From: an uncultured Candidatus Saccharibacteria bacterium
GTDB taxonomy: Bacteria > Patescibacteriota > Minisyncoccia > Phycocordibacterales > UBA918
Assembly: GCA_964350985.1 (NCBI GenBank)
Contig: CAYGLK010000001.1
Location: 292,528 to 356,527, forward strand
DNA length: 64,000 bases
Reading direction: 5' to 3'
Part shown: one piece after another, positions 4,548-61,950 of the stretch
Layout: each line of letters starts with the position of its first letter
How positions within the stretch are numbered: the first letter of the stretch is position 1
Position numbers and translations under genes: made by a program
The notes under the pieces: model-generated
What the model was told of the DNA's origin: nothing
The model's input: the letters and a program-made list of their open reading frames with translations, nothing else
Database searches by the model: none

Positions 4548-4588
4548 ATGACTATAAGTATGCTCTCTTTTGGAAAGGACGTAAAGCT

Positions 4589-19431: not shown

Positions 19432-19470
19432 CAGTTAAAACATGTGAACCCGCCTATAATACGAGGTCTG

Positions 19471-22419: not shown

Positions 22420-22460
22420 AAATCCTAGGGTGACCCTAGGATTTTTTGCTTTTAGTTTTA
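22420..22460. terminator. GC-rich hairpin followed by a T-tract
   Basis: AAAAATCCTAGGGTGACCCTAGGATTTTTTGCTTTT is a 13-bp stem with a CCTAGG core. It reads as an intrinsic terminator on the plus strand and sits upstream of the uvrC start on the minus strand. Confidence 0.6.
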
Positions 22461-22503
22461 AACTACGCTCTCCTAAAATATCCTCTTAGTATAAATAAGT
22501 CGT

Positions 22504-22620
22504 CATATCATACATGATATGACCTTCGTATCATGTATGATACGATCCTGTCATTCTCAATAGAAATCCATGAGCGGGTCTATGTAAATTTTGATTTATC
22601 TATCCTCAATGATAGATAAA
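22504..22620. promoter_or_regulatory. cluster of palindromes (operator-like) between uvrA and uvrC
   Basis: TCATATCAT-AC-ATGATATGA (22504-22523). TCGTATCATGTATGATACGA, a perfect 20-bp palindrome (22527-22546). TTTATCTATCCTCAATGATAGATAAA (22596-22620). The same 20-bp palindrome and the TATCTATC...GATAGATA element recur at 54468-54595. Confidence 0.6.
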
Positions 22621-22632
22621 CAAGTTATCAAA

Positions 22633-22660
22633 ATTCCAAGGTCGGGCCTTGGAATTAAGA
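22633..22660. terminator. hairpin immediately 3' of uvrA
   Basis: AATTCCAAGG-TCGGG-CCTTGGAATT, 28 nt downstream of the uvrA stop on the minus strand. Confidence 0.5.
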
Positions 22661-40621: not shown

Positions 40622-43600
40622 TTAGTATGAAGGAATAGCTAAATAAACAATCTCAGTCTCATAATCACCGGCTGGCTGTAACTGATTTACCCTAATTCTA
40701 TAGACTATATCATATGTATCATTTCCAGGAATTGAGCTGTACATAACCTCAGTTGGGTCTGTCTCCAGTCCAGCATAAGTGTCACTGGCTGCAAACCTGG
40801 TGGAGCCGTCTTTCAGAGTTGGATCAGTCGAATGGTAACCAAAACAACCTGTAGAAGATGCGTTGCAAGCAGCTGACCAACTACTTGGTAATACGTTTGT
40901 GGCAGAGATGGATTGGATGGAATTTCCGTTTGAACTTAATAATTCTTGTCTAGCAAACTTTAATATTTGGTAGCCTTCAGAAGCATTAGTAAGGACATTC
41001 AGTCGATGAGCGGCAATGGACTCACTGTTTATTGTTAGTCTACCAAAATCTATACCTGAAGGACTAGTAGAGACATTGGTCACTACCCCAGCTGTAGTTG
41101 TCCCGGAAGGTAGGCCAGCAAGAGAAAACTCTAGAGAAGGACCTTCCGTTAACAAAGAAGGATATGATGAATCGTTGGCAAAATAAACAGGTGAATCGTT
41201 AGTTGTATCATAAAGTCTAAAGTAATAGACGGCATTAACCCTAGCGGCTACGTGCCTTAGGTAAAAACTATATTCCTGAGTTACTCCAGCAAAATGTGTA
41301 TGAGTTGTTACAGAGTTAGCAATGGTGTTATGGGTACCACAACCAACTCCGACACTAGAAACACAAGTATCTGCATCAGACAATAGTGTCGTTGTTATTA
41401 GTTCATTATCAACTCCTCCACCTTCTGCATAACACCACAAAGATAAATCGGCACAACTGGTGGTGGCTACTACGTCTATTGGATTGGTAAAAGTTACATC
41501 TTCAGAAAATTGTAATTTAAATTTAATGTTATCTCCTTGAGCATTTTTTCTTTCATCCACACTAACTCTTAAGGCTAGCGTATCGTTATTGGCAATATTA
41601 ATTGGTGTTACTTCCTCTGCTCCAAGTGGACTCGACGGAGTCTCATTTTCTAGATCACTATACCAGCGCCAATTTGTAATTAATGGCGTATATCCAGCAG
41701 TTCTAATTTGCGGATAATTGCTATATCCATCAAGTAAAGCTCCATCACTTTTAACAGCCCTGAAACAATAAGTACTTTGTGGATTAGCACCATTTTGCTC
41801 TAGGTACCAATCGTACTCAATAATATCCCCCTCATCTGCAGCGTATGGGTTAATAGCTGATGGATTCTCATGAACTAGTGCTCCTGATCTATTGGCAATA
41901 GAGATTAGTAAATCTCCGCCTGTTGGGGGGTCTAAAGAAAGACTTGTACCGTCCGTTGTTCCAGTTGCGGCAAAACCTCTCCAAATTGAGCCACTACCGG
42001 CCGCGCCCACATCATTCCAGTTTTCAAGACTTACTGCCGAACATGTACCAGGACGAAGAGCGTATTGCAATTTAAAATTTACAAACCCAGCTGGCATGTT
42101 GGCATTATTTATTCTCATAGTCATTCGAACCCGTAAGCGTTCACCAATTCCAAGCGGTTCGTCAGCTGTAGTGATTGGGGAATTTTCTCCAACATCACTT
42201 ATTCCAACTGGCCAAGGATCTGTTGGAGTCAAATCATTATTATCAACATAAAAACGATAATAGTTTTGTCTGATAGCTAAGTCCGCCACAGGCCATTCAA
42301 CTAGTTCAACCCTGTAAGTAAGAACTGACCCAGTGTTACTACGCCATATTTGGTATGTAGAAGTACTGGTTATTGTAAATCCCGCCATTGCTCTTGGATG
42401 AGTATTGTTAGCTCCAGCAGCGTAAACATTAGCTGAAATAGAAGTATTATTTAAAGCATCAAGCGAAGTTGGCAAAACTACAGATAAAGCAAGTGGGCCT
42501 GTACCACCGCTTGTAATTCCATTTGATCGTTGCACATTCATGCCAGATATTCCAGTTTGTATGTTTTCTACTACCCAAGCGACAGATGTTTGCTCAACAG
42601 CAACCGAAGCCCCAGCTGCTAACTCAAAAGAGACAGCGCCGATACTTGAAAGCCAGACCTGGTGTCCAAAGTGAACAACGTTTGTGGTTGCTCCCATTCT
42701 TTTTTGAGCATGAATAAATGTCCGGGCTAGACTATTTACTGGTGTAATTGACTCTGTCTCTGTAACACCTGAAGCAGTATATGAATGCTCTACTCTTTGC
42801 ACATTCCAATTAACACCGACAAATTCGACCACTGCGTAACTTACTTCAATAATACTACCGCCTGCGTTCCCTCTTCTAAAGACTGGACTTTTCGTTACTG
42901 GATCCCAAGTTGCTGTTACTTGTCCGGCGTAGTAGTTTCTTGATGCATTACGATTTAAAACACCAGTTACAAATACCACTACCTTACTGTCATCAACGAC
43001 ATTGTTGGCAACCGTTCCAGTTGCGACCACACTTGAGTTAGACACAGTTAAAGTACCGACATCTCTAACCTGCATCTCATTGTCGGTATTTATCTTTCCA
43101 ATAAACTCAATTATCTCCCAGTCTACTCTAGTGTTATTGATAGAAACTCCTGTCCGACCAATAGTGAAGCTAGTACCGATATTTTCTGGATCTTCTATAT
43201 AGGCAGTGACGTCATCAACGTTTTGGGCCGAGGTAACACCAGTATTATGTCCCGCCCCAGTATAGTGAGCATTGGTAATCCTGACGAAAGCCAAACTTGT
43301 ACTAGCTACTGGCGTATACCCAACTCCTGAAACAACCGTTGTCGCTGTACCAGAAACCTGCACTGAACCTCTTTGAATTTTAAAGTCACGTTTAACAGCT
43401 GTACTGATTTCTGCATAATTATTGTAACTATTGAAACTTGTTCCTAATGCTGAAACTCGAAAACAATAACTTGTTCCATACGATGTAAGGTTGGTTGAAG
43501 TGATGCTAAATTCTAGATCGACATAGTCATCAGCTGGTATTGTCGTAGTGGCAGTAAGTGACTCAGTATCTCGTACGCCGCCATTGGCAGTAATAAAACT

Positions 43601-46600
43601 TCCAACTCCATCGGAAACTCCTCCATTAGCTACTATTATATCGGTTGTTGTTTCACCATTTGTTAAAAAAGTTGAATCGGACATGTCCCATCCGTCCGCC
43701 GCAGCATCCACATCGGTCCAAACAGTCGCCATATCACAAGTTGTAATCTTAGGTGAATATTCAAGTCGATATCGTCTTGGTGCGCTTGATATTGCAGCCG
43801 TATTTGTAACACCAATTCTAAGACGAATTTTACTGTTTGGGGTGAAGTCAGTTATAGGTGTGTTTTCAGAACCGCCGGTTGCAGAAGTTGCTGCTGTCTC
43901 AGATCCGTTATCATTGCGCCAATGATAATTAGTTTGTGTTAAGTTGGCTCCAGCAATTGTAGTTGTATCATTAATACTTATTTGCGCAGAAGGTCCGACT
44001 GTCGCCACCCCATCAACAAGAACGTCAGCTGTTGGAGAATTAATAATAATGTCTATGGTTTCATTATTTTGCGCAAATGAAGTAACGTCATAAACGACAT
44101 AAATACAAGCTGTACTGGTTGTAGAAATAGCAACAGTGTCGCTAAATGTGGCACTCTCTCCTGCTCCTGAAAATCCACTAAGCGAAGTGACTCCAAACTG
44201 TGCCTCACCACCTCCATATGATTCACTAGCACAATTGTAAGGAGCTGTGGTATCTAGGTCATAGAATAGTCTTAGGTTTTCTAGACCTACGGCTCCATCA
44301 ACAGTACCTGTTTCGTATATTGTAATATCAGTAATATTTCTTGAGCTAGTATTTTCCAGCACACTAAATCCTCCACCTGAATATACATTTGTGTCAAAAA
44401 CAGATGTAGAGGCAATTTGATTACCAAATGCCTGCACTAGAACATCAGCAGAAATTGTGACGCGTGGTAGTTCGGTATAACTACTAAGCGCAACTCCATT
44501 TTTAACTAATCTAAAACAATATGTTTCTCCTTCAACCGAAGTTGTCGAAGCAACAACAGAAAACTCCGCTTCAAAAAAATCATCGATATCGAGACTCATT
44601 GATCCTGAAGTATTGTTGACGTCTCTAAAAGCAGCATTGGAACTGACAAAATTTGTACCAAAAATATCTGTCACTCCTCCACTACTAGGATTTATATTTG
44701 TCGTATTATTTCCATCCGTAATATTTACTGAATCGCTCAGACTCCAAACAGACGCTGGGTCGCCAACTAGTTCCCAACTTGAAGTATCAGCACAAGTAGG
44801 TGCTGCCACTCCATATTGAAGTGAGAAATTTGTTGGTGGAGTTGTTGTTGAACCCTGGTTTGCCACTCCAATTCTAAGTCTCCTTGGTACATTTTTTTGC
44901 AGCGCTGGGATAGGTGTATTTTCGATGCCAGCAGTAGCAGATGAGGCAGTTATTTCAGTGCCGTTATCTAAGCGCCAATGATAAGCAAACTGGGTTAGGT
45001 TAGGATCAACAATAGTAGTTGTCCCGTCTATAGCTATTTCTGTATCTGGGAAAACATCTGGTCCTCCAGATGTTAGGACATCAAGTTTTGGATTGGCGAC
45101 TGATATTTCTATCGTACTACCATCAAGTGCATTCGGTTCAACATCAAAGACAACATAAACACACATGGATTGAGTACTTGATACTGAAACTGGTGAAGTA
45201 CTAAATGAAGCAACACCGTCACCTCCAGAAAAACCTGACGCTACGACTGTACCGAACTGGGCCTCGCCACCACTATATGATTCACTTGTACAGTCATACG
45301 GGGCTGAGGTATCGAGATCATAAAATAATTTTACATTTTTAATATTATTTTGCGCATCGATGGTGCCTGTTTCGCTAACAACTATTGTTCCAATGCTTTG
45401 ATTACTTCGAGCTTTAACCAGAAAAGATCCGCCAATATATAAATCACTTGATGAAGCCAAAACTTCAGTAACCTGGGTCCCTAGTGAACTTAATTCTACA
45501 TCCGGACCAATATCTGCTAAGGTGTTTCCAAAAATATCACGCACTCCAGCTGTATTATCAAACCAGGTAATATATAGACGTTCTTGGTCCATTAGGTTCA
45601 TATCAATTCCATACATATCACCTGAAACTGAATTTAAAGGTCCTTGTTCACTACCCCAAGTACTCATACTAGTTGTAGACCTAACCCAAAATACATCAGC
45701 TGAACCAACAGTACCTATAACCGCTCTGGCGGTATAACCGACATAGATGTCGCCATTATTTAAATCTCGTCCGATAGCAACTTGTAAAAGTCCTCTGGCA
45801 GGATCATCAGTAATAATGTCAGCTTGAGATGACCAAGAACCTGAACTATATAGACGCGAACGAATATCATGATCAGTTACGGTAAAATTATTATTATCAG
45901 CTACATAAACCAAATAAATATCTCCGTTTGTAATATCAACTGTTGCAGCCATACTGACATCGTAAGTTGTATTACGTGGAGCTGATGCATCTACTGTAGT
46001 AAATGATGACCAGGTTGCTCCACCCCAAATACTAGATCTAATTTGATTTGTTGAACTACGATTTATAAGCATCACATTTCCACTTAGTAGAGGTACAAGT
46101 AGACTCCAGGTATTAACGTTACCTTGTGGTGGAGTGCCAACGTCACTCCAGCTCGTAGACAGATCACAACTTGATGAACATGATCGTATATAGGTTCCAT
46201 TACTATCGTCGATGGTCATATAAATTGCACCATCTGTTGCTTTAGTAACGCTGATCACATTTGCGCCTACAGAATAAGCAGTAACTAACCCAGGCATAGT
46301 ACTTGTTGAAGTAGTCAATAAGAGTGAGTCATCTGTTGTGTCCATCCGGTTGTAAAACATTTCGTCTGCGCCAGTATCAAAAGTTGCAATATGAATCATG
46401 CTTCCTGTGTCACCAGGAGTCCATTGATCGTACCAAACAGAGACATCTGCACAGTCGGTTTGACTATCTACCGCAACCTGACTACCCCAAGTGTCTCCAC
46501 CGTCTGTAGTTTTCCGGTAGACACAACGACCGTTGTCAGGAGATGCTCCATAGCGATGAAATTTATAGCCTACCTGATCACTTACAAAGACAACACTAGA

Positions 46601-46792
46601 CCCAGCTTTGTTGTGCGTAACTGCTGTTGTATTTGGAGATGGCTCAAGGGTAACTACTGCCGCTTCAGCTTTTTCAATAAATAAATTTGATAATCCAATA
46701 AAAATAATACTGGTATCAGACAAAAACAACGCCAATATAACTAGTGACACTAAAAACTTTTTGATACCAAAAAATAAGCCTCGGAATTTCAT
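40622..46792 (-). CDS. giant (2056 aa) secreted surface protein: N-terminal BNR/Asp-box propeller-like region, two ~350-aa tandem repeats, divergent WxL-like C-terminal domain
   Basis: N-terminal signal or TM. Asp-box TTDGGDTWG. Duplicated blocks (LFYDLDT[ST]APY[DN]C[TA]SESY[SG]GGEAQFG and YHWR[LN]DNG[TS]E, each twice). Recurring YCFR motifs. C-terminal ...LNVLTNASEGYQIL...AGDYETEIVYLAIPSY. Confidence 0.7.
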   Translation of the reverse strand: MKFRGLFFGIKKFLVSLVILALFLSDTSIIFIGLSNLFIEKAEAAVVTLEPSPNTTAVTHNKAGSSVVFVSDQVGYKFHRYGASPDNGRCVYRKTTDGGDTWGSQVAVDSQTDCADVSVWYDQWTPGDTGSMIHIATFDTGADEMFYNRMDTTDDSLLLTTSTSTMPGLVTAYSVGANVISVTKATDGAIYMTIDDSNGTYIRSCSSSCDLSTSWSDVGTPPQGNVNTWSLLVPLLSGNVMLINRSSTNQIRSSIWGGATWSSFTTVDASAPRNTTYDVSMAATVDITNGDIYLVYVADNNNFTVTDHDIRSRLYSSGSWSSQADIITDDPARGLLQVAIGRDLNNGDIYVGYTARAVIGTVGSADVFWVRSTTSMSTWGSEQGPLNSVSGDMYGIDMNLMDQERLYITWFDNTAGVRDIFGNTLADIGPDVELSSLGTQVTEVLASSSDLYIGGSFLVKARSNQSIGTIVVSETGTIDAQNNIKNVKLFYDLDTSAPYDCTSESYSGGEAQFGTVVASGFSGGDGVASFSTSPVSVSSTQSMCVYVVFDVEPNALDGSTIEISVANPKLDVLTSGGPDVFPDTEIAIDGTTTIVDPNLTQFAYHWRLDNGTEITASSATAGIENTPIPALQKNVPRRLRIGVANQGSTTTPPTNFSLQYGVAAPTCADTSSWELVGDPASVWSLSDSVNITDGNNTTNINPSSGGVTDIFGTNFVSSNAAFRDVNNTSGSMSLDIDDFFEAEFSVVASTTSVEGETYCFRLVKNGVALSSYTELPRVTISADVLVQAFGNQIASTSVFDTNVYSGGGFSVLENTSSRNITDITIYETGTVDGAVGLENLRLFYDLDTTAPYNCASESYGGGEAQFGVTSLSGFSGAGESATFSDTVAISTTSTACIYVVYDVTSFAQNNETIDIIINSPTADVLVDGVATVGPSAQISINDTTTIAGANLTQTNYHWRNDNGSETAATSATGGSENTPITDFTPNSKIRLRIGVTNTAAISSAPRRYRLEYSPKITTCDMATVWTDVDAAADGWDMSDSTFLTNGETTTDIIVANGGVSDGVGSFITANGGVRDTESLTATTTIPADDYVDLEFSITSTNLTSYGTSYCFRVSALGTSFNSYNNYAEISTAVKRDFKIQRGSVQVSGTATTVVSGVGYTPVASTSLAFVRITNAHYTGAGHNTGVTSAQNVDDVTAYIEDPENIGTSFTIGRTGVSINNTRVDWEIIEFIGKINTDNEMQVRDVGTLTVSNSSVVATGTVANNVVDDSKVVVFVTGVLNRNASRNYYAGQVTATWDPVTKSPVFRRGNAGGSIIEVSYAVVEFVGVNWNVQRVEHSYTASGVTETESITPVNSLARTFIHAQKRMGATTNVVHFGHQVWLSSIGAVSFELAAGASVAVEQTSVAWVVENIQTGISGMNVQRSNGITSGGTGPLALSVVLPTSLDALNNTSISANVYAAGANNTHPRAMAGFTITSTSTYQIWRSNTGSVLTYRVELVEWPVADLAIRQNYYRFYVDNNDLTPTDPWPVGISDVGENSPITTADEPLGIGERLRVRMTMRINNANMPAGFVNFKLQYALRPGTCSAVSLENWNDVGAAGSGSIWRGFAATGTTDGTSLSLDPPTGGDLLISIANRSGALVHENPSAINPYAADEGDIIEYDWYLEQNGANPQSTYCFRAVKSDGALLDGYSNYPQIRTAGYTPLITNWRWYSDLENETPSSPLGAEEVTPINIANNDTLALRVSVDERKNAQGDNIKFKLQFSEDVTFTNPIDVVATTSCADLSLWCYAEGGGVDNELITTTLLSDADTCVSSVGVGCGTHNTIANSVTTHTHFAGVTQEYSFYLRHVAARVNAVYYFRLYDTTNDSPVYFANDSSYPSLLTEGPSLEFSLAGLPSGTTTAGVVTNVSTSPSGIDFGRLTINSESIAAHRLNVLTNASEGYQILKFARQELLSSNGNSIQSISATNVLPSSWSAACNASSTGCFGYHSTDPTLKDGSTRFAASDTYAGLETDPTEVMYSSIPGNDTYDIVYRIRVNQLQPAGDYETEIVYLAIPSY

Positions 46793-52839: not shown

Positions 52840-52952
52840 TGTAACAAGAAAGCCGAACTTAGATCCGCGCTGTACACAGAAAACAAAAAACCCGTCTCGT
52901 GGTGGGAGATAGGGTTTCTTGCGTTAACTCCAAGCTTGGAGCCAATATTACT

Positions 52953-54107
52953 TTAGAATACTGGCGTTGCTACATATGTCAGTGTAGCTGTGTAGTCGTC
53001 ACCGGCTTCTTGCAAAGCGGTTATTTCAATAGTATACCCGACTCGAGTAGTACCAATTCCTTGTGTAGTTCCATCTACTGGACCATTGTGTCTAAATACT
53101 TCAACCGGAGTTGTAGATGCAGACACGTACAAACGTCCTGATCCCAGAACATCATACAAATCTGTAAGAGATGGTGAGATCGTAGCGTCGTTTGTAGTAA
53201 TACCCCAGTGACCGTAAGTATCTTCATCCCCCAATACTACAACTGGTCCGTCCCATAATGTAGGAGTGGTGGTGTAGCTACCTTCGACGAAACCGTCAAT
53301 ATCAGCACCTGTTGCTGAAGTAAGTTGTTGATCAGTGATTACAGTAACCACAAATCCATTTGATGCATTTGTACTTACTTGTAGGTCTTGAGCAGCAGTC
53401 TTAGCGTTTCCGTCTGACAGAATACCGAAAGGTATTTCTGTGGTTGTAGATGTACTAGTAACTGTATCTCCATTTACTGTGAGGTCTGCATCCACACCAA
53501 GAACGGTGAAATCGAACACAGTCTCAACAGAAGCAGAAACAGTAACAACATCTAGAATTACTACTCGAGTGGCACCAGTATCAACTGAAGCCCCTAGTGT
53601 CAAAAGAATCTCGTAAGAGTCAGCTGACGGGTTAGTGATCTGGTTTGTACCTGCTCCACCTGCTGTGGCGTTGGTACCAATCTCGATAGTAACTGTAGCA
53701 CCTGCGCCGATAGTATCTGTACCACTAGTGATGTCGATAACTGTACCGGCGGCAGTTACGTTCCAATCTCCCGCACTGGCAGCGCCATCAATCAAATCTT
53801 CATCAACACCATTAACCGCAAGGTCAAGGTCTTGAGCAACTAGACTGTCGATACCGGCAAAACTAGTTGTTCCGAATTCAATTGATATTGTCTCTCCAGC
53901 GGCTAAGCCTGATGGAGTGACAAATGAAAGAGTGTGGTTAGACTCTTCCAAAGGTTCTGAGGTTGAGAGAGTGTTACTAAAGGAGGTGACATTCGCAGCT
54001 TCCGCATTTGGGAATAAAGGTACTCCTACTGTCCATAAAATGGTAGCGAGAGTAACAACTGCAGCGATTGCTTGGAGCAACTTGAACGTTGTATTCGTTC
54101 TAATCAT
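52953..54107 (-). CDS. secreted surface protein with divergent WxL-like C-terminal domain
   Basis: N-terminal TM or signal. Thr/Gly/Ala-rich. C-terminal ...LQVSTNASNGFVVTV...TYGHWGI...AGDDYTATLTYVATPVF shares its signature with the C-termini of 40622-46792, 57208-59073 and 63515->64000. Confidence 0.55.
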   Translation of the reverse strand: MIRTNTTFKLLQAIAAVVTLATILWTVGVPLFPNAEAANVTSFSNTLSTSEPLEESNHTLSFVTPSGLAAGETISIEFGTTSFAGIDSLVAQDLDLAVNGVDEDLIDGAASAGDWNVTAAGTVIDITSGTDTIGAGATVTIEIGTNATAGGAGTNQITNPSADSYEILLTLGASVDTGATRVVILDVVTVSASVETVFDFTVLGVDADLTVNGDTVTSTSTTTEIPFGILSDGNAKTAAQDLQVSTNASNGFVVTVITDQQLTSATGADIDGFVEGSYTTTPTLWDGPVVVLGDEDTYGHWGITTNDATISPSLTDLYDVLGSGRLYVSASTTPVEVFRHNGPVDGTTQGIGTTRVGYTIEITALQEAGDDYTATLTYVATPVF

Positions 54108-54467
54108 GTTGCTCTACGTTGTATTAGTTTTTCAGCTTAGATATACGTCGCGACCGAAAACTAAATGAGCAGATACTCATGCAGGAACAGGTCTCCACTC
54201 CTGTTTCCCTATATGTGCGCTCAAAAACATACCTACTTTGAAACACTCGGCTGAAGTGATCAAATACAGCTACGCCGTATTTGCAGTAAGACTAATTTCT
54301 TACCCCCAAAATAAGTACCTCTTCATTGTAACTTTAATTATTTTTTAGTCGGTTACTTTATACACATTATTTAGTACTTCTGAGCCAGAAAAGTAGTCGA
54401 TTTCTCAAAATAATAATTGCATTGAGATTTTAAAACTATTAATCACTTTTTGAGAGGTCAATAATAC

Positions 54468-54640
54468 TTTATCTATCCTCAGTGATAGATAAAGTGCTGT
54501 AAAGTTTTGCAGAAGATTAGACATTCTCCACTTCATATTTATAGATGATATAAAAAATTCAGATCGTATCATGTATGATACGATCTGAATTTTTTATCTA
54601 TCTATCATTGAAGATAGATAGATAGATAGATAGATATTTT
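54468..54640. promoter_or_regulatory. palindromic operator-like motifs plus a 44-bp perfect palindrome (bidirectional terminator-like) and a (GATA)6 microsatellite
   Basis: TTTATCTATCCTCAGTGATAGATAAAG (54468-54494). AAAAAATTCAGATCGTATCATGTATGATACGATCTGAATTTTTT (54552-54595), whose core is identical to 22527-22546. ATCTATCTATC...(GATA)6 at 54596-54636. Confidence 0.65.
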
Positions 54641-54700
54641 CTTATCTCTAAGTTCCAAAGAAAACAAAACCTTTCACTCGACTAAAAGGTTTTGTTTAGT

Positions 54701-55078
54701 GTAGCGACTACTACGAATTTAGTTCCGGATTCGACCTACCCCAGGGAGAATCCCTGGAACTCGCAGTATAAAAGCTTCGTAAAAACAGTATTCTCTATCC
54801 GGTCCAGTTTAAATGAGTAAATGTCCGTAAGGTCATATTACGAATTTAGCTCCCGATTTTTTCTCCGCCAGAGAAAATCGCTGGAGCTCAAAGTCCAACG
54901 CTAAACAAAGTCAGACGAAGTTACCCCGTCCAATTTAAATGAGTAGACGAGCGTAGCGACTACTACGAATTTAGTTCCCAATTTGTCCCTCCCTAGGGCA
55001 AATTGCTGGAACTCGAAAACCAAAGCTAAGTAAAATCTTTCAAAATTACCCGGTCCAATTAAAAAGTAAGATAGAAAA
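54701..55078 (+). repeat. three tandem 126-bp units of a structured repeat family (AGTTCC-variable hairpin-GGAACTCG core)
   Basis: Units start at 54701, 54827 and 54953, each beginning GTAGCGACTACTACGAATTTAGTTCC. The inner stems differ between copies but stay complementary (GGATTC/GAATCC, CGATTTTTTCTC/GAGAAAATCG, CAATTTG/CAAATTG). The loop carries CC(C)TAGG(G). Confidence 0.75.
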
Positions 55079-56206
55079 ATCCTCAATCCCCACTCTTGCG
55101 TTTCCATTTATATCAGCTGGAGGATTTGAATTACCACCGTTAGTTCCCCACCAAAAAATCAAAATTGAGAAGTCGACTAAGTTTACTTTTCCGTCCCGGT
55201 TAAGGTCAGAGGGTCTAGTTACTTGCCCATCCACACCCACAAAAAGCTGTAGCGCTGAGCTAAAGCTACTTTGCGTAGTTAAAGGTGGATTGCCAGTTAC
55301 GGAACGAGCTCTTAGTGTATGTTCAGCAACGCGTAGTGATCCTGTATTTAATGAAATAGACCAAGCACCACTACTACTAGAAGTTGCTCTTTCAATTCTT
55401 TCACTGTTATTTACATGGAGTTCAATTCTGGCATTTGGTACAGACTGACCACTTACAGTAACCACGTCACCTGGATTTACATTTTGGTTAGCTACCCTAA
55501 CTGTCGGCGGGAGAATAATTCCAGATATGTTTGTCACTGCTCCTTGAGTAACATCAAAAGTTGTATTTAAAGTAATTGATCTTACATTCTGTGAGTCAGT
55601 TGACCAAAAACCTAAGGATGAAGTTCCTGGCGAAGCATCAGTTGTAAAATCAAAACGACCATCTGTCCCTACTCTTACTGTACCAACAGTTACTGTATCT
55701 CTGAGAATATTTAAAGTTCTTCCAGGATAAGCAAGACCGGTAACATTTATGACGGTGTCTCCAAGCTGGGTATTACTTCCTCCTCCTCCACTACTTCCAC
55801 CACCACTACTTCCACCTCCTCCTGAACCAGCTGGTTCAATCTTACAGATAGCTGAGCAAAAATCTCCATTATTATTATTTCCATCGTCACACTCTTCTGT
55901 AAACTGAGTCTGTAAAATACCATCTCCGCAATACGGACCAAAAAAACATGTCGGACTACATTGTCGACCAGTTATTGTCGTACTATAAACACCAGTCTCT
56001 CCAGGAACATCACATTGTTCTCCGGCGTCTACCAAAGCGTTACCACAGATACTTAAGGTTAGTGTTGTTGTAGCAACACCCTCAGTAGCTGCGCTTCCTA
56101 TATTTACTTGTAAAAAAAGGCTTGGAAGTAATATTGCGATTAACAGTAAGTAATATCGCATAGGCTTACTCTGACTTAGGACGATTTTGTCGTCGATTGT
56201 AAACAA
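55046..56206 (-). CDS. secreted protein with Myxococcus-type Cys-rich repeats, Gly/Ser linker, Ig-like region and C-terminal dockerin domain
   Basis: CGNALVDAGEQCD...CGDGILQTQFTEECDDGNNNNGDFCSAIC matches the CxxC/CDDGN repeat. GGGSSGGGSSGGGGS linker. C-terminal DLNRDGKVNLVDFSILIF...DINGNARVGIEDFSILL gives two dockerin Ca-loops. Confidence 0.65.
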   Translation of the reverse strand: MFTIDDKIVLSQSKPMRYYLLLIAILLPSLFLQVNIGSAATEGVATTTLTLSICGNALVDAGEQCDVPGETGVYSTTITGRQCSPTCFFGPYCGDGILQTQFTEECDDGNNNNGDFCSAICKIEPAGSGGGGSSGGGSSGGGGSNTQLGDTVINVTGLAYPGRTLNILRDTVTVGTVRVGTDGRFDFTTDASPGTSSLGFWSTDSQNVRSITLNTTFDVTQGAVTNISGIILPPTVRVANQNVNPGDVVTVSGQSVPNARIELHVNNSERIERATSSSSGAWSISLNTGSLRVAEHTLRARSVTGNPPLTTQSSFSSALQLFVGVDGQVTRPSDLNRDGKVNLVDFSILIFWWGTNGGNSNPPADINGNARVGIEDFSILLFNWTG

Positions 56207-57095
56207 AGTAAAGAATCAAAATAATAAGTGAGAATATTGGTAACAGTACAGATATCTTATGAGGGATAGACAACCCACTAAAACCAAAACCAGCTGCCTG
56301 CAGTGTGCCGTACGGTAAAATACTCAAGCTAATCTCACCCTCTTGTTTAACTTCATCTGAGTTATAAATTTTATAACGCGCGATATAGTTACCAGTCGGC
56401 AATCTTGTCGGTAAGTAAGCAAAAATTTCTTCGGTTGCGTACGGCTCGATTTTTTCAACAGAACCTTTATTTCTCGTTTCTTCAAGAAGAACGTTGCCAG
56501 CAAAATCGAATATTCTAAACTCAACTTTTGAAGGAGAGATATCTACGTTACCAGTATTTTCAATCAACATTGAAAAATTAATCTTTCCTGGGAAATATAA
56601 CCAACCGAATTTATGACCTTCATTTAAATCTGAGAGACCAATCTTTCTAACTCTAAAGTCTTCAATCTCTCTATCAATAACTGTTAGGTTAATATCAACT
56701 TGAGCTCCCAAAGAGATACTAACAGCTCCAGCTGAAACCTGGTCGTCATCTGGAACAGTCTTAATACGGATCACTCCACCGTAATCTTTAAAATCAACAT
56801 CCTTAGGAACCTTCACTCTTACTGTCATAGGGACCTTCTGCTGGCCTCTAGGCAGCGGTATAGAGGTTCCTTCGACGATCTCTATCCAACTGGCTATCTC
56901 AGGAGCATCGACTGTTACAAGCGCTTTTTGGGGCACGTCAGGGTTTCCACGAACAAGTAGAATTTGTTGTTCGTAAGTAGAATTTTTAGTAAGGCTAGTA
57001 TTACGAACGTATGGCGGTGTTATACCAAAGCCAGCCTGCGCAATTTCTGCAGACAAAACAAACAACAAAAGACAAATGCAAATGACCTTGTTCAT
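56166..57095 (-). CDS. membrane-anchored surface protein (DUF916/DUF3324-like), paralog of 39594-40619
   Basis: Signal peptide ...AEIAQAGF. Two beta-sandwich-like halves. C-terminal TM (LLPIFSLIILILYFVY) followed by NRRQNRPK. Start moved to internal Met MNKVICI... Confidence 0.5.
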   Translation of the reverse strand: MNKVICICLLLFVLSAEIAQAGFGITPPYVRNTSLTKNSTYEQQILLVRGNPDVPQKALVTVDAPEIASWIEIVEGTSIPLPRGQQKVPMTVRVKVPKDVDFKDYGGVIRIKTVPDDDQVSAGAVSISLGAQVDINLTVIDREIEDFRVRKIGLSDLNEGHKFGWLYFPGKINFSMLIENTGNVDISPSKVEFRIFDFAGNVLLEETRNKGSVEKIEPYATEEIFAYLPTRLPTGNYIARYKIYNSDEVKQEGEISLSILPYGTLQAAGFGFSGLSIPHKISVLLPIFSLIILILYFVYNRRQNRPKSE

Positions 57096-57207
57096 ATAAT
57101 AACTACCGCTAGTTTTCGACACTTATCAATTATCGAAAAAAAATCAATAAAAAGCAACAACCACTGTCTGGATAACAGTGGTTGTTGCTTTAAAACTTTT
57201 AGTTATT

Positions 57208-59073
57208 TTAGTACCAAGTACTCGACGCTGCGGTCACTGCGTAGAAAGTGTTCAGTCCTGTGTATGCTCCAGCGAGAGTGATTGCTCCCGGAACTGCAAT
57301 ACCCCAGTAAGTTACTCCTTGAGTGTAAGTCACTGTAGAAGTAGACTTCGGTACTCTTAGTTCCAGAAGTTGCGGAGTTGATGAAGACAGAGCTTGACCA
57401 CTTCCGTAACTAACTGAGCTAGTTGCAAACTGTTGACTAAAGTCAGGGATTGTAGAGGTCGCTGAACTTTCACAATCGTTCCCAACTGAGAAAGTAGGAC
57501 ACATTGCTTCCCCTTCAACGTTTTGGTTTAGTCCAGTGTTACCGACTGATTCAATTGTAGTTGTTGCTGTAAGTGAACCTGAGTCTTGTCCTGGCTCTAG
57601 AGCTCCATAAGGAATCTCTGCTGTTACCAAATCAATGGCTGGGAAACTGAATAGTGTCACTGGGTTTGAACTTGTAGAAATTGTACCAGTTGCATTGTTA
57701 TCGTCTACTCCAGCAATTCCTGCAGTCCATGAATCATTGTTGAAGAAAGCAGTTGCATCTGTAGGGTCAGCAACGAACCATAGTGGGAAGGTACATGACC
57801 ACTCTAGGGTTGGGTCAGTTGTACCAGTACAGCTAGTAGATGATGCTGTACAAACCAGGTTCCAAGTTGTTGTTGCTACTCCACTTGGGTAACAGTTGTT
57901 TGGGTTGTAAGCACCAGCTAAACCATTACATGTAGATGTGCCGACTCCACTTCTAAGTACTGATGCTGAGTATCCTGTAATCTCGCTACCGGCTGAAGCG
58001 TTCTCACAACTGTTCGCGTCTGAAACTGTAAAGTCGAGAGTGAATCCAGTAGTTTCTCCAGCTGGTACTGAAAGTGAAATATCTAATCCTCCATTTATAG
58101 ATATTGATGCCGGACCAACTGTTGGAGCTACGTTATTTACTGTGTAACCAATGTCAGTTCCTTGGAATCCACCAGAAGCTGCGTGATTGTATTCATCTAC
58201 TATAAATACGTAGGCAAAGTAGATATCGTCTGGAATAACTGATGGGAGAGTAAATGTTGCTCCAGCGTTTGACGTGACTGAGCCAGTAGTACTTGCTAGA
58301 ACTCCACTTGGACAATCTCTGGTTGTTGGGTTGAAGTCGTTTCCAACACAAACATAAAGGAAGATATCATCTGGACCTCTAACTGTGTTTGGGTCAGCAG
58401 ATACTGAAGTGAAGTTTAGAACTGCACCTGGGTCCACTGGAGACGTGCTCGTAGCTGACGTTAGAGTTGGTCTAAAGTTAACATGGAAAGGAGATGAGTT
58501 TGTTGCATTTAGTCCCTGAGAAGAAGTGTTGTTACATCGAGGGTTAACAGGGTCATCGTCACAGACCCATCCGTACCACTCTAAAACTTCCCCACTAAAG
58601 TCTCCGACTTCAGTAGTTGTTGTAGAAACAATTGCTTGAGCTAGAGCTGCTGTCGCAGTTGAAACTCCCCATTGCACACCACCAACACAAGAAGGCGGCG
58701 CAGTTCCCAGTACCAAGAGAGACGCTGCAGCAGCTGGGGTTGGAGTTGCACTTCCACTACAGATAATCATAAAGTATGGAGCATCTCCAGAGTTGTCTGC
58801 TCTTCCTACCCAAGAAACGTTTGATCCTGAGTTGGTTGGAGTACCAGACGATGACTCAAATTGCTCAACTGCGAAATCAATCCACTGTGGAGGAGTGTTC
58901 AAAACAGTGATGGTTGTAGTAGCAGTCTGTGCTTCTACTTTAAGTAGTTCGGTTTTACCTACATTAAAAATGAAAGCAAAAACAAACACTAAAACACCTG
59001 ATAAAACTGCAGCGATGGTAATCTTCCCTGCAGTTTGGATATAATTTTTTTTCTCTACTAAATTGTACAACAT
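57208..59073 (-). CDS. secreted Thr/Ser/Cys-rich surface protein with divergent WxL-like C-terminal domain
   Basis: N-terminal TM. C-terminal ...FSFPAIDLVTAEIPYGAL...ESVGNTGLNQNVEGE...VTYWGIAVPGAITLAGAYTGLNTFYAVTAASSTWY. Confidence 0.55.
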   Translation of the reverse strand: MLYNLVEKKNYIQTAGKITIAAVLSGVLVFVFAFIFNVGKTELLKVEAQTATTTITVLNTPPQWIDFAVEQFESSSGTPTNSGSNVSWVGRADNSGDAPYFMIICSGSATPTPAAAASLLVLGTAPPSCVGGVQWGVSTATAALAQAIVSTTTTEVGDFSGEVLEWYGWVCDDDPVNPRCNNTSSQGLNATNSSPFHVNFRPTLTSATSTSPVDPGAVLNFTSVSADPNTVRGPDDIFLYVCVGNDFNPTTRDCPSGVLASTTGSVTSNAGATFTLPSVIPDDIYFAYVFIVDEYNHAASGGFQGTDIGYTVNNVAPTVGPASISINGGLDISLSVPAGETTGFTLDFTVSDANSCENASAGSEITGYSASVLRSGVGTSTCNGLAGAYNPNNCYPSGVATTTWNLVCTASSTSCTGTTDPTLEWSCTFPLWFVADPTDATAFFNNDSWTAGIAGVDDNNATGTISTSSNPVTLFSFPAIDLVTAEIPYGALEPGQDSGSLTATTTIESVGNTGLNQNVEGEAMCPTFSVGNDCESSATSTIPDFSQQFATSSVSYGSGQALSSSTPQLLELRVPKSTSTVTYTQGVTYWGIAVPGAITLAGAYTGLNTFYAVTAASSTWY

Positions 59074-59169
59074 AATAATGAGCTATTTTTAATATTTTTT
59101 ACTTCATCTACTATTGTATCTAATTATGCATCTACTTATGCACCAGTTATACACATTCTTGTTAACAGT

Positions 59170-60378
59170 CTATTCGTAACGAATAGCGTCCAATGGATTA
59201 AGGGTAGCTGCTCTTCTGGCTGGAAAAACTCCAGTCAGGTATCCAACGGCGGCGGAAAAAACTGCAATAAAGAGTAAGAATAATAGAGGGAAAGAAAAGA
59301 GTGTTACAGCCTGTCCGCCAAATTGTCCAGCGACAATGTTCAAAAATATATTGACTGTTACTCCAAAAACCACACCCATAGCAATACCGGTTACTCCTCC
59401 CATAAAACCTACTACTACTGATTCGGAGACGAAGAGATACTTAACGTCATTGGGTGACGCACCAATTGTACGCATAATTCCAATTTCCTTAGTACGCTCA
59501 AGTAGCGTAACTGTCATGGTATTAAACATCCCAATAGCTGATACAAGCAAAGCAATTCCACCAAAGGTCGCTAAAACTGCTTGAATACCCTGGAAGATTT
59601 TTGATGCCTGTTCTACTGTTTTAGAAAGGGCTGTCACTCGATAGCCAGCCTCGATTAGTCGCTCTTCCACGATTGGTAGATTTTGATTACTGTCGACTCG
59701 AACTTGAATTCTTTCATACTCTTCAACTCCAACATGTTCTCTTAGTTCCGGAAGCATCATCAACGCATTTAGAACTCCTTCTTCTTTTGTAATTCCTCTA
59801 ACTGTATATTCTTTATCTATTGGTAACTCTAGAGTTGCTTCAGTTCCATCATCAGCTGGAACCAAGAGTCTGAAAGAAACCTTTTGACCAACAAAAGATT
59901 CTGCATCATCAACACCGAACAACTTCAATACGGCCGGCGAAAGCATAATTGTATTCGTGTCTCCTCCATCTTCGCTTCCGAAGACATCTCCTTCAGTGGC
60001 TGTAATACCAGCATAGCGAAGGTAAGGCGGCTCAACTCCTTGGATGAAGACATTCCCAGTCAATCCTTTATAAGTGACCAAAGCCGGAAAACGAGCTAGT
60101 GGCGAGGCGTCCAACACTTCTTCATATTTTTTAAATGTATCAACTGTTTCAGCCGTCAGTTTTAAATTTTGGGCACCAGTTGAAGATACCCCTAAAGAGA
60201 GTAGGGTTTCTCCGAACACAATTTGTTCTAGGATAATTTGCTGAAGTCCAAAACCAAGACCTACCAAAACCACGACAGCACCCGTACCTACACCCATACC
60301 TAAAATAGTCAGCCAGGTTCGTAGCGGATTTGTTTTAAACATTCTGGTTGAAAGTTGTGCTAAGTCTTGTACTCGCAT
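59170..60378 (-). CDS. ABC transporter permease (FtsX-like / MacB-LolCE family)
   Basis: 402 aa. N-terminal TM, a large periplasmic domain and three C-terminal TMs. MacB-type topology. Confidence 0.8.
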   Translation of the reverse strand: MRVQDLAQLSTRMFKTNPLRTWLTILGMGVGTGAVVVLVGLGFGLQQIILEQIVFGETLLSLGVSSTGAQNLKLTAETVDTFKKYEEVLDASPLARFPALVTYKGLTGNVFIQGVEPPYLRYAGITATEGDVFGSEDGGDTNTIMLSPAVLKLFGVDDAESFVGQKVSFRLLVPADDGTEATLELPIDKEYTVRGITKEEGVLNALMMLPELREHVGVEEYERIQVRVDSNQNLPIVEERLIEAGYRVTALSKTVEQASKIFQGIQAVLATFGGIALLVSAIGMFNTMTVTLLERTKEIGIMRTIGASPNDVKYLFVSESVVVGFMGGVTGIAMGVVFGVTVNIFLNIVAGQFGGQAVTLFSFPLLFLLFIAVFSAAVGYLTGVFPARRAATLNPLDAIRYE

Positions 60379-60395
60379 TAAATGAAATAATGAGC

Positions 60396-60590
60396 GTAGC
60401 GATTATATTGAATTTAGTTCCGAATTTTCTCAATTCCTAGAGAAAATTCCTGGAACGACCAAACGCCCATGTTAAGCATAATTGTAGCATTGAAACAAAA
60501 TTTAAATGAAAGCTATTCACTATTAAGTAGAGTATACTTCTATACTGCGAGTTCCAGGAGTTTGGCCTAGGAAAGGGCCAAACTCGGAAC
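60396..60590. repeat. two further copies of the AGTTCC-hairpin-GGAAC element, in inverted orientation relative to each other
   Basis: Forward copy 60396-60467 (GTAGCGATTATATTGAATTTAGTTCC GAATTTTCTC..GAGAAAATTC CTGGAAC). Reverse copy 60546-60590 (revcomp GTTCC GAGTTTGGCC..GGCCAAACTC CTGGAACTCGCAGTATA, matching the 54701 unit). Confidence 0.7.
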
Positions 60591-60627
60591 AAAATTCACA
60601 ATATGCCCTCTGGGCATTTGTTTATTT

Positions 60628-61950
60628 TTAACTCTTGTAACTTACGTCGACACCTTGAGCAATTATTTTTTCAAAGTACCTGGTTAGTTCGTCGGCTTCT
60701 TTTGGATCTAGTGAAAGTCCACCAGATTTTAATCCCTTGCAAAGTCTTTCGTTAAACTGGTCTTCTTCAATCACTCCAGTCACACGGTCAGCAATCATTT
60801 CAATCAAATTCTCATTTTGGTCTTTGCTTAGTTTGATTCTATTTGCCTGCAATAAATGATCTTTTAGACGTTCAGCTAACTTATGCTGACTAAAGAAAAT
60901 ATCGTCATTATCTTTTTTGGCTCTAAATCTTCTAATGTCATCCGCTTGATGAATTAGTTTTTCTGAAGTGGCAGCCATCTTTCTTGCTTCTGGTTCAGAC
61001 ATCTCTACTCCTCCCCTCTCCATTTTTAGAATCAGTGCTCTAATAAAAGTATCGCGATCAATTTTTCCTTTAATAAATAATTCTACTGCATGTTCCAGTC
61101 TAACTAATTGGTCGTAGGTGTATTGTTGAGTCAAAAAATTGACCATACTTTTTACACGCAAAGTATCTACAGAGTCGTATGGAAAAAGTCGAGCCAGCTG
61201 TTCGAGTTCAGTTACGATTGTTTCCCCTTCTCTAACTGGTTTAATTTGTTTTCGTTGCGGGTTCACAACTTCTCGTACTACAAAACCATCTTTAAGGTAG
61301 TAAACTCTATGAGCATAACTTAAGTGAGCCGCGTTGTGAGACACCATAATAATAGTCCGTCTATCGAAGGTGTTAATCTCATCAATCTTATCCATTACTT
61401 GTTGAGTAGACACTGAGTCCAAGTTTCCAGTTGGTTCATCCGCTAAAAGAATTTTGGGATCATTAACCATCGACCTAGCTACCGACACACGTTGCTGCTG
61501 ACCTCCTGAAAGCATGGCTGGTATCTTGTGTGACACATGTCCCACTCCAAAACGATCTAAAAGTGACTGCGCTCTTCTCTCTCTAGTTGTACGATCCGCG
61601 TCACAAAAAATCATCGGGAGAGCAACGTTGTCGAGCACTGAAAGAGAACCAATTAGGTTAAAAGACTGGAAAATAATTCCCATCACGTATCGTTGGAAAT
61701 AAACTCGCTCACTTGGTGGATAAGAGTAGATGTCGTCCCCACGAATTAAAAGAGTCCCTTCTCCAGGAGGTAGAGATCCTTGAATAGAATACATCAGTGT
61801 CGATTTACCTGAACCTGAGGCACCAAAAAGAATAATATACTCACCTTCATAGATGTCAGTATTTACCCCTTGAAGAGCCTTAAATTCATTTGACTTACCT
61901 TGATTGTAAATGATTGAAAGATCTCTACAGACAATAAGCGGTTTGGCCAT
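60628..61950 (-). CDS. ABC transporter ATP-binding protein (MacB/LolD-like) with ~210-aa C-terminal helical extension
   Basis: Walker A GASGSGKST, signature LSGGQQQRVSVAR, Walker B ILLADEPTGNLD. Residues after about 230 are charged and helical with no known domain. Confidence 0.85.
   Translation of the reverse strand: MAKPLIVCRDLSIIYNQGKSNEFKALQGVNTDIYEGEYIILFGASGSGKSTLMYSIQGSLPPGEGTLLIRGDDIYSYPPSERVYFQRYVMGIIFQSFNLIGSLSVLDNVALPMIFCDADRTTRERRAQSLLDRFGVGHVSHKIPAMLSGGQQQRVSVARSMVNDPKILLADEPTGNLDSVSTQQVMDKIDEINTFDRRTIIMVSHNAAHLSYAHRVYYLKDGFVVREVVNPQRKQIKPVREGETIVTELEQLARLFPYDSVDTLRVKSMVNFLTQQYTYDQLVRLEHAVELFIKGKIDRDTFIRALILKMERGGVEMSEPEARKMAATSEKLIHQADDIRRFRAKKDNDDIFFSQHKLAERLKDHLLQANRIKLSKDQNENLIEMIADRVTGVIEEDQFNERLCKGLKSGGLSLDPKEADELTRYFEKIIAQGVDVSYKS

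Follow-up and report, generated by a model that had tools for sequence, protein, structure and literature searches.

A covarying four-helix interspersed repeat of Patescibacteria that may be a non-autonomous mobile element

Among the repeats that are dispersed through bacterial genomes, REP and ERIC sequences also act as modulators of mRNA. ERIC (enterobacterial repetitive intergenic consensus) elements, or IRUs, measure approximately 127 bases. Insertion sequences of the IS200/IS605 type carry a hairpin at each end and a defined right cleavage site, create no target duplication, and are strongly oriented with respect to the direction of replication. Here we describe a non-coding element of approximately 110 bases that shares features with each of these systems. 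It is present in five copies in a 64,000-nucleotide stretch of DNA (referred to as the window, whose numbering is used throughout) from an uncultured Candidatus Saccharibacteria bacterium, where three tandem units lie downstream of a dockerin-domain gene and two inverted copies separate the genes for an ABC permease and an ABC ATPase. We estimate a probability of about one half that the family behaves as a non-autonomous mobile element, now or formerly active, which depends on the fold of one strand and has REP, ERIC, and PATE elements as its nearest kinds.

The three tandem units and the two inverted copies were recognized in a first-pass annotation of the window, and all five proved to be real. 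Tandem Repeats Finder reports an array at 54701 to 55064 with a period of 125, 2.9 copies, 68% matches, and a score of 328, and a repeat search recovers the three copies of this array along with direct matches at 60378 to 60427 and inverted matches at 60537 to 60581. A covariance model built from 27 copies and run on the 64-kb window with filters off returns exactly five matches, at 75 to 101 bits, whereas the next best match scores 14.6 bits. The E-values of the five copies range from 4e-14 to 1e-19 and those in the rest of the 64 kb are 0.5 or worse. Thus, the repeat family in the window is far beyond chance. A hairpin at 22420 to 22460, which had been suggested as a relative, is not matched by the model and is unrelated.

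Four helices are proposed for the element when RNAalifold is applied to a MAFFT alignment of the copies. The first, P0, joins [U/A]AAA at the extreme 5′ end to UUU[A/U] located right before the long hairpin. The P1 stem comprises four pairs, is preceded by UGA, and has a 3′ strand that is followed by GAA, whereas P1b comprises two to six pairs closed by GNA, GAA, AAA, or GNRA loops. In the long hairpin, P2, 15 pairs are divided between the outer stem GUUCC/GGAAC and an inner stem of nine or ten; a CU is bulged on the 3′ side, and the loop of seven or eight bases carries CCUAG, which is the family-wide loop consensus. The outer stem of P2 is nearly invariant and the inner stem varies freely. 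These helices define a core of approximately 90 bases, which is extended to approximately 110 by a loosely conserved tail of 20 to 35 bases. The unpaired bases are nearly invariant as well, particularly the UGA opposite GAA and the GA..GA around the apex, both of which could form tandem G-A pairs. A kink-turn or box C/D interpretation of these same motifs was rejected, because the motifs are separated by paired segments and a 3-base bulge is lacking.

The earlier proposal that compensatory changes in the stems reflect selection on the fold is strongly confirmed by the approximately 160 copies now available. In an alignment of 113 distinct copies fitted to the model, 97.7% of cells are paired, compared with 77.8% in shuffles and 33 to 54% with slid partners, and double changes occur in 23 of the 24 pairs. 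The same helices emerge from an alignment made without fitting to the model. P0 covaries with the flank (UA in 65 copies, AU in 30, GC in 9), and folding of single sequences as RNA reproduces the architecture, with z-scores of −4.6 for unit 2 of the array and −5.95 for copy 5. The fact that G-U combinations outnumber A-C combinations by 70 to 18 indicates that the folded strand is the one reading TAAATGA...GGAAC. Because this bias is alike in copies that are antisense (8:0) and sense (15:2) to their neighbors, the folded strand is not set by the direction in which a locus is transcribed. Although one open frame runs through the consensus, its ATG is not conserved, and the inner segment takes lengths of 25 to 30 bases that are not spaced by multiples of three. 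The element is therefore non-coding.

Copies of the family were recovered by pattern scans and by the covariance model. A search of one genome per species with the pattern GAATTTWGYTCC-N(20-40)-CTGGARC yielded at least 120 loci; approximately 80% of the listed matches to this loose pattern are due to chance, and these were filtered by inner-stem length. Among the 120 matches listed, 23 good loci carry 7 to 11 consecutive pairs in the inner segment (two, with the same flanks, carry only 4), and the rest carry zero to two, a clean split. Nearly all of the good loci among these listed matches reside in metagenome-assembled genomes (MAGs) that carry a Saccharibacteria, Kaiserbacteria, Paceibacteria, Parcubacteria, Nomurabacteria, or "Patescibacteria group" label; an unclassified "bacterium" MAG, a "Patiriisocius" MAG with two loci, and one "Elulimicrobium" MAG are labelled otherwise. 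A stricter pattern matched 116 metagenome loci. In 100 of these loci, totaling 637 kb, the model finds 133 matches, often two to five per locus. Apart from the label exceptions above, the approximately 160 copies recovered in all come from Patescibacteria MAGs or from metagenome contigs. The 33 copies beyond each locus's seeding copy correspond very roughly to one per 20 kb, a density that extrapolates to tens of copies per 1-Mb genome. The first-pass annotation had named a lack of additional copies as grounds for dismissing the family; its spread across the Patescibacteria decisively removes that objection.

No match to the stricter pattern was found in 2.9 million viral contigs, and none was found by blastn in phage and plasmid records. 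A viral, phage, or plasmid origin was therefore set aside, given the lack of matches in those collections. At gathering thresholds, a search of the whole window against Rfam detects a tRNA alone. When matches with E-values up to 10 are admitted for 54400 to 55200, the units are overlapped by RsaF (16.9 bits, cut-off 60) and Six3os1_3 (13.5 bits, cut-off 40), apparently by chance, and all other matches fall on palindromes at 54540 to 54700. The sequence strings are absent from the literature searched, which also held no papers on such repeats in candidate phyla radiation (CPR) bacteria. Apparently, then, this is a Patescibacteria-wide structured interspersed repeat that has so far gone undescribed.

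The positions of the copies relative to genes are distinctive at one end of the element. Copies occupy spacers between ordinary housekeeping genes (115 families among 224 flanks), in both orientations, and are found in the dnaB-recR and rplJ-rplL spacers, at dnaN, dnaG, SMC, and recA, at the start of rpsS-rplV-rpsC, and between the ABC ATPase and MacB genes. Orientation relative to flanking open reading frames (ORFs) is near random, with 28 sense, 28 antisense, 31 divergent, and 21 convergent cases by a loose count and 26, 16, 8, and 7, respectively, by a stricter one. The 5′ end is very sharp. A gene on the same strand stops within the first ten positions in 23 of 60 cases, using either the TAA of P0 or the conserved TGA, and in 17 of 37 cases an ATG on the opposite strand lies exactly against TAAA at a fixed offset. 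Overall, 40 of the 97 copies scored have their 5′ end flush against coding sequence. The 3′ end, on the other hand, never approaches a gene more closely than 10 to 18 bases, and its distance varies widely. At the dnaB-recR spacer, for example, the copies of four genomes are antisense and flush with the recR ATG, and that of another (L081) is sense and flush with the dnaB TAA.

In several copies, duplications of the adjacent gene end accompany these sharp junctions. The tandem array had been described as a repeat with a 126-base unit, but this period is instead explained by an element of 110 or 111 bases plus a 15-base duplicate of the end of the dockerin gene. The true 3′ end of this gene occupies 55046 to 55060 on the minus strand (AATTGGACCGGGTAA, encoding N W T G and the stop codon) and is conserved in the relatives L238, L239, and L240. 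A second copy of the 15-mer with one change (TTACCCCGTCCAATT) is located at 54921 to 54935 on the plus strand, between units 2 and 3, and a diverged copy with several changes, four by count (CTATCCGGTCCAGTT), is located at 54795 to 54809 on the plus strand, between units 1 and 2. In the plus-strand reading, every 15-mer, stop codon included, directly adjoins the 5′ end (TAAA) of a unit.

Comparable duplications are evident elsewhere. The last codons and stop of recA are duplicated over 32 bases at two loci (L200 and L171), the end of an fn3-type gene over 32 bases (L188), the first codons of a downstream gene over 32 bases (L131), and the end of a dockerin-family gene over 17 bases (L140). When flanks were compared with shuffled flank pairings, 8 loci exceeded the 99th percentile versus 1.3 expected, and flanking duplications of variable length, from 15 to 35 bases, are present in at least five independent loci. 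The gene-proximal copy leaves the gene intact, with a junction of the form ..YAAA / TGA.., and YAAA or CAAA is likewise found at the end of the other duplicate; in the window and in L140, L200, L171, and L131, this unoccupied copy retains YAAA at the junction. The 5′ strand of P0 lies at this junction, yet TAAA seems to be the element's own in some loci. The cores of the tandem units in the window are 88 to 89% identical to copies from other samples and at most 74% identical to one another; the core of unit 3, for instance, is 89% identical to the L171 and L144 copies. The fact that the units are nearer to foreign copies than to their neighbors, together with the different tail type of unit 1, suggests that the array arose by repeated insertion at one site and not by local amplification. 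Recombination between the 15-mers could also add or remove units.

Comparisons among relatives reveal gain and loss of copies at the species or genus level. The MacB permease is 84 to 93% identical across more than 100 protein clusters, and three relatives were taken with 10-kb flanks and searched with the covariance model. In the window, the ATPase-MacB spacer is 249 bases long and holds copies 4 and 5, and three tandem units follow the dockerin gene. In L238 (MacB 92% identical), the spacer measures 25 bases and holds no copy, and none is found in 21 kb. In L239 (89%), a spacer of 146 bases holds one copy, the orthologue of copy 4, and a fragment follows the dockerin gene. In L240 (87%), a spacer of 40 bases is empty and one full copy follows the dockerin gene. 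Furthermore, L122 has copy 4 along with only a decayed inverted copy, and L176 has both. Orthologues of copy 4, with compensatory changes, are present in L122/L205, L239, L233, L176, and L188. An orthologue of copy 5 whose core is 98% identical is present in L176, and copy 5 is absent from L238, L239, and L240. Because relatives have one copy without the other, or neither, the inverted pair consists of two separate elements. The suggestion that the pair forms the terminal inverted repeats of one miniature element consequently gives way to two separate, complete copies at different gene ends.

If the family is mobile, its top strand, folded either as RNA or as single-stranded DNA, would be recognized by an enzyme encoded elsewhere in the genome. 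By analogy with the left end of IS200/IS605 elements, the YAAA next to the insertion point may pair with UUUR, which lies internally where P2 begins, such that the target is partly chosen by base pairing. The dockerin array would then have been built by repeated insertion at the same YAAA in the last codons of the gene, with 15 bases duplicated each time, and the inverted pair would represent two independent insertions, one at the ATPase stop codon and one at the permease start codon.

Several described systems resemble this element in part. Like ERIC elements (Hulton 1991; Wilson and Sharp 2006; De Gregorio 2005), it spans roughly 100 to 130 bases, is strictly intergenic yet lies within transcription units, occurs in either orientation and in tens of copies per genome, and has a sequence that is conserved clade-wide at positions that differ by species, with a fold kept by compensatory changes. 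An ERIC element, however, consists of a single long, imperfect palindrome bounded by terminal inverted repeats, with a duplication of TA, whereas the Patescibacteria element is composed of two adjacent arms and has neither; there is also no sequence similarity between them, and the host clades differ. No inverted relationship links TAAATGAGCAAA at the 5′ end with the 3′ tail (nCGnAAUCnAAA, variable thereafter), as terminal inverted repeats would require. Likewise, the fixed, short target duplication of 2 to 10 bases made by miniature inverted-repeat transposable elements, including ERIC, Correia, and RUP, does not appear here, where duplications are 15 to 35 bases and variable.

The first-pass annotation had listed a REP-like family among its candidates, and this is the closest of those offered. 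REP sequences and BIMEs are likewise hairpin repeats in spacers and 3′ untranslated regions, form tandem and inverted clusters like the pair at 60.4 kb, carry conserved unpaired bases beside the stem, and have one strand that is apparently the active one. However, a REP is a single hairpin of 20 to 40 bases with GTAG (or GTGG) at its 5′ foot, and the present element is three to four times larger, with four helices. In this element, GTAG is confined to the apex of arm 1, where it is poorly kept and gives way to GTAA, GAAG, or CAGA in other copies. No RAYT (Y1 HUH) transposase is encoded among the approximately 40 ORFs scanned in the window, although no genome-wide search for RAYT genes was made.

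The nearest mechanistic model, by analogy, is the left end of an IS200/IS605 element, which inserts 3′ of a tetranucleotide paired with a guide at the base of a hairpin. As in these insertion sequences and in PATE elements, there are no terminal inverted repeats, the end is folded in a strand-specific manner, and the left junction is sharp; it may lie 3′ of a short target as theirs does. In addition, P0, wherein YAAA pairs with UUUR, resembles the pairing between cleavage site and guide at the hairpin foot of IS608 (Barabas 2008; Ton-Hoang 2010). One departure from this model is that the stretch from target to guide is itself a covarying hairpin in the Patescibacteria element. A second resemblance is to SINE-like or otherwise retroposed elements and to the small dispersed repeats of Nostoc (Elhai 2008), which share variable target duplications of 15 to 35 bases, no coding capacity, an RNA-like fold with G-U pairs and GNRA loops, and nested or tandem build-up at one site. 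Variable duplications of this length are more typical of retroposition. In retroposition by target-primed reverse transcription, though, the 3′ junction is the sharp one, whereas here the 5′ junction is sharp and the 3′ tail is ragged. The folded strand therefore fits poorly as a retroposition RNA template, with its ragged end on the wrong side. No reverse transcriptase linked to the family was found among the same window ORFs. We know of no SINE-like element in Patescibacteria.

A number of observations weigh against mobility. Pfam scans, which covered the ORFs at 49 to 64 kb and most others in the window apart from a 2056-aa ORF at 40622 to 46792 and small ORFs, find no transposase, reverse transcriptase, or integrase among approximately 40 ORFs, and no partner enzyme was identified in the 64 kb of this genome or in the 8- to 21-kb pieces of others. 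Duplications accompany only a minority of copies, and variable duplications of 15 to 35 bases fit no bacterial transposase known to us. The presence of duplications is also a departure from IS200/IS605, as is the absence of a right-end motif, and the weak replication-strand bias may be another: the folded strand is the G-rich strand by local GC skew at 33 loci and the other strand at 19. No conserved 3′ cleavage motif was found, and a 3′ TAAA, which might have marked a short target duplication or the site of right-end cleavage, was discarded because it occurs in just 21 of 88 copies. The empty sites available, at approximately 80% identity, are too diverged to define insertion junctions at the level of single bases. 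Finally, the fold of copy 4 is preserved by at least six compensatory double changes at the ATPase-MacB junction, including a G-C to U-A change in L239 and changes in P1, P1b, and the outer and inner stems in L176, and the tail drifts among these orthologues while the fold is kept. Such changes in an orthologous copy, together with the highly conserved unpaired bases, favor some selection in place, which would be surprising for an insert that is purely selfish and decaying.

This last point leads to the most serious alternative, which we regard as possible though doubtful, wherein the element is a structured RNA that serves its host, either as a small RNA made from many loci or as a cis-acting module bound by a conserved Patescibacteria protein. 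Such a module might process or stabilize adjacent cistrons or couple their translation, and gain and loss would then amount to regulatory turnover. Four covarying helices with conserved unpaired UGA/GAA, GA..GA, CU bulge, and CCUAG are typical of RNAs that bind proteins or ligands, and some copies have GNRA-type apex loops. The fold is maintained by compensatory changes at an orthologous locus. The core is approximately 89% conserved compared with approximately 58% in adjacent coding DNA (counted by eye). Moreover, stop codons within P0 would couple translation termination to unfolding, and several sense copies have a stop codon on one side and a canonical terminator on the other.

The near-random orientation of copies relative to flanking genes is difficult to reconcile with a host RNA, and so are the antisense copies in operons (dnaB-recR, ATPase-MacB, and upstream of rpsS), which keep the G-U signature of the non-transcribed strand. 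A small-RNA gene with its own promoter is unlikely because copies that start at a neighbor's start or stop codon leave no room for a promoter, and the free-standing small RNA envisioned in the first-pass annotation is thus improbable. A promoter scan is at background level, and no U-tract or terminator follows P2. An internal promoter for leaderless expression of the abutting gene was also rejected, since neither strand has −10 and −35 elements at a workable distance. In addition, close relatives lack the element at the same gene junctions. In the window itself, an A/T-flanked hairpin (AAAACAAAACCTTT..AAAGGTTTTGTTT) read at 54662 to 54697 is probably the terminator of the dockerin transcript; its G-C pairs are too few for a consensus scan to pick it up, and L239 has an equivalent hairpin immediately after its dockerin gene. 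If so, the array falls between the stop codon of its transcription unit and the terminator and runs antisense to that unit, with this hairpin shielding its 5′ side.

A second alternative is a DNA signal that does not move: a folded single strand or cruciform bound by a protein of replication, repair, competence, or the nucleoid, one possible role being a site for priming or loading on single-stranded DNA. We consider this unlikely, even though it would explain why folding is specific to one strand irrespective of transcription direction. Among DNA mini-hairpins, GC[GNA]GC and C[GAA]G, both found as apex motifs here, are classic and very stable examples, and Hirao and colleagues reportedly identified d(GCGAAGC) as one of these. 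The folded strand does weakly favor the G-rich strand, and copies often lie beside dnaB, recR, dnaN, dnaG, recA, and SMC. However, the orientation bias is weak, and four of the five copies in the window are on the C-rich strand. Presence and absence among relatives, clusters, tandem arrays, and flanking duplications are unexpected of fixed chromosomal signals, and the neighboring genes are, when considered together, simply diverse housekeeping genes. Mobility is compatible with a host function as RNA or as a DNA signal.

Stem-loop arrays with variable palindromic stems, called TIGR arrays, have been described for CPR bacteria (PMC12045711). The tandem stem-loops, variable palindromic stems, and organism group are shared with the present array, which prompts the question of whether this is a TIGR-Tas or CRISPR-like guide-RNA array. 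This is highly improbable, and TIGR-Tas membership is effectively refuted on anatomical grounds: there are no dual spacers and no box C/D pattern, the loop has seven or eight bases, the sequences between stems are conserved across genomes in a manner unlike spacers, and most copies are solitary. Furthermore, no Cas protein and no adjacent Tas or Nop-domain gene is present among the scanned window ORFs. An integron attC site (RYYYAAC / GTTRRRY) was similarly rejected, as the outer stem GTTCC/GGAAC has pyrimidines after GTT and the neighbors are dnaB, recR, rpsS, and recA. Local tandem duplication with nothing more than chance similarity elsewhere, to which three adjacent units of common period might point, has virtually no chance of being correct and is refuted by the approximately 160 foreign copies, to which the units are closer than to each other.

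The five copies in the window differ in completeness and in detail. The window has approximately 38 to 41% G+C, its GC skew is negative throughout, and almost all genes are on the minus strand, including the dockerin-domain gene at 55046 to 56206 (Pfam DUF4215, Big_6, and Dockerin_1), the MacB/FtsX permease gene at 59170 to 60378 (MacB_PCD and FtsX), and the ABC ATPase gene at 60628 to 61950 (ABC_tran), such that Pfam bears out the gene context given in the first-pass annotation. The ATPase ORF encodes 440 aa, of which ABC_tran covers only residues 26 to 174, and approximately the C-terminal half has no Pfam match. Unit 1 (54701 to 54794, plus strand; model match 54681 to 54768, 75.5 bits) is truncated at its 5′ end, begins with GTAGCGACTAC, and lacks the 5′ strands of P0 and P1. 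Its P2 occupies 54722 to 54760 and its tail, which runs to 54794, starts TCGCAGTATA.. and is of the type found in copy 5 and in L176/L233, unlike the tails of units 2 and 3. Unit 2 (54810 to 54920, plus strand; match 54807 to 54895, 82.3 bits) is complete at 111 bases, with the 5′ strand of P0 (TAAA) at 54810 to 54813, an arm 1 apex of CC[GTAA]GG, P2 at 54849 to 54887, and a tail to 54920. Unit 3 (54936 to 55045, plus strand; match 54933 to 55020, 101.4 bits) is complete at 110 bases, with TAAA of P0 at 54936 to 54939, an arm 1 apex of GC[GTA]GC, P2 at 54974 to 55012, and a tail to 55045.

Copy 4 (60376 to 60490, plus strand; match 60376 to 60464, 96.6 bits) has TAAA of P0 at 60379 to 60382, P2 at 60417 to 60456, and a tail that begins GACCAAACGCCC.. 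and extends to approximately 60490; the CAT at 60376 to 60378 is the start codon of the permease on the minus strand. Copy 5 (60520 to 60631, minus strand; match 60543 to 60631, 93.4 bits) is convergent with copy 4, has P2 at 60551 to 60590 and a tail that reaches down to approximately 60520, and includes the ATPase stop codon TAA (60628 to 60630) within its first positions. A Logan contig, ERR3534985_71837 (L237), is 100% identical to the window from 52888 to 60580 and represents an independent assembly of the same organism. It terminates within the hairpin of copy 5, as expected if repeats of this kind break short-read assemblies.

The stems quoted in the first-pass annotation (GGATTC/GAATCC, CAATTTG/CAAATTG, GAATTTTCTC/GAGAAAATTC, and GAGTTTGGCC/GGCCAAACTC) can all be read in the sequence. 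Unit 2, whose stems were not quoted there, has an inner stem of CGATTTTTTCTC/GAGAAAATCG and a compensated outer stem of AGCTCC/GGAGCT. Some of the finer statements apply only in part. The inner stems were called perfectly self-complementary, which does not hold for unit 1, with an internal GA/GA mismatch, or unit 3, with a T-G pair. The CCTAGG loop is present in unit 3 and copy 5 only, and is replaced by CCTAG in copy 4, CCCAGG in unit 1, and GCCAGA in unit 2. The leader GTAGCGA... is found in units 1 and 3 and copy 4, whereas unit 2 (GTCCGTAAGGTC) and copy 5 (TGCCCAGAGGGCA) have a different small hairpin there, and the element in fact starts approximately 20 bases further 5′ than that leader, at TAAATGA.

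Variants and other repeats accompany the family in related genomes. Short-form arrays (L165 at 529 to 696 and 4442 to 4684; L175, L105, and L198) present a P2 hairpin every 80 to 100 bases with a 5′ arm that is reduced or different, and thus the core module appears to be P2, with arm 1 dispensable in part. The same spacers of relatives hold further interspersed repeats (L122 at 1780 to 1900, L176 at 3160 to 3200, and L240 at 15340 to 15480; also L139, L162, and L217). One of these contains ATGTGGTCCGCC and a hairpin with ..TTTCGACCCCGCAGGGAGAAAAT.. and occurs at nine loci, and another contains GGTATGCGGCCGGAGCAAG. L122 combines a segment resembling arm 1 (AAGGAGCGCATAGCGCGACTATG) with a second arm of another kind, a hint of a wider superfamily.

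The window also contains structures outside the family. A second tandem repeat of three units, with periods of 128 and 124, spans 18916 to 19239 and adjoins a tRNA at 19360 to 19432 on the minus strand. Each unit, read on the minus strand, forms one long hairpin of the form GGUC-GA-[stem with compensatory changes]-apex-GU-GACC, and the apexes GAGCGUAGCGA, GAGUGAAGCGA, or GCACAAAGUGC use the same motifs as arm 1 of the main family. Two of the units are followed by copies of the 3′ part of the tRNA (CGAATCTTCTCG), which echoes the duplicated gene ends described above; the repeat does not recur elsewhere in the window. Upstream of a 384-aa ORF at 52953 to 54107 (minus strand) is a non-coding stretch of approximately 260 bases (54108 to 54370, minus strand) that is much better conserved in L238, L239, and L240 than the remaining spacer and is preceded by a promoter-like TTGTGTATAA..TACAAT. 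RNAalifold predicts a multi-stem fold for it, with 12 of 68 pairs compensated among four sequences only, and Rfam gives no match at E-values up to 1. This stretch is a candidate for a structured leader, riboswitch, or small RNA. Lastly, the spacers at 22480 to 22640 and 54440 to 54640 have two kinds of palindrome in common. The first, TCGTATCATGTATGATACGA, occurs twice at 22503 to 22547 and once at 54564 to 54585, inside a perfect inverted repeat with 23-base arms. The second, TTATCTATCCTCAATGATAGATAA, occurs at 22596 to 22620, 54469 to 54493, and 54598 to 54622, beside an (AGAT)6 run. These palindromes may represent operators or a further family of small repeats.

Patescibacteria have genomes of approximately 1 Mb with very little spare DNA, and a conserved non-coding element of approximately 100 bases in tens of copies is unexpected for this reason. 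The family is a strongly covarying four-helix structure with no counterpart in Rfam or in the literature searched. We think it rather improbable that the family is a protein-less mobile element of approximately 100 bases whose guide UUUR picks YAAA, which inserts at gene termini with long and variable duplications, and whose machinery, a single-strand DNA nuclease or a reverse transcriptase, is linked to no known bacterial repeat family, or else a new phylum-wide class of structured RNA with a protein partner. If the element is mobile, it would provide a handle on DNA movement in organisms with few recognized transposons and a possible marker for strain typing and for assembly breaks. If it is instead a functional RNA or a DNA signal, it would point to a new phylum-wide protein partner.

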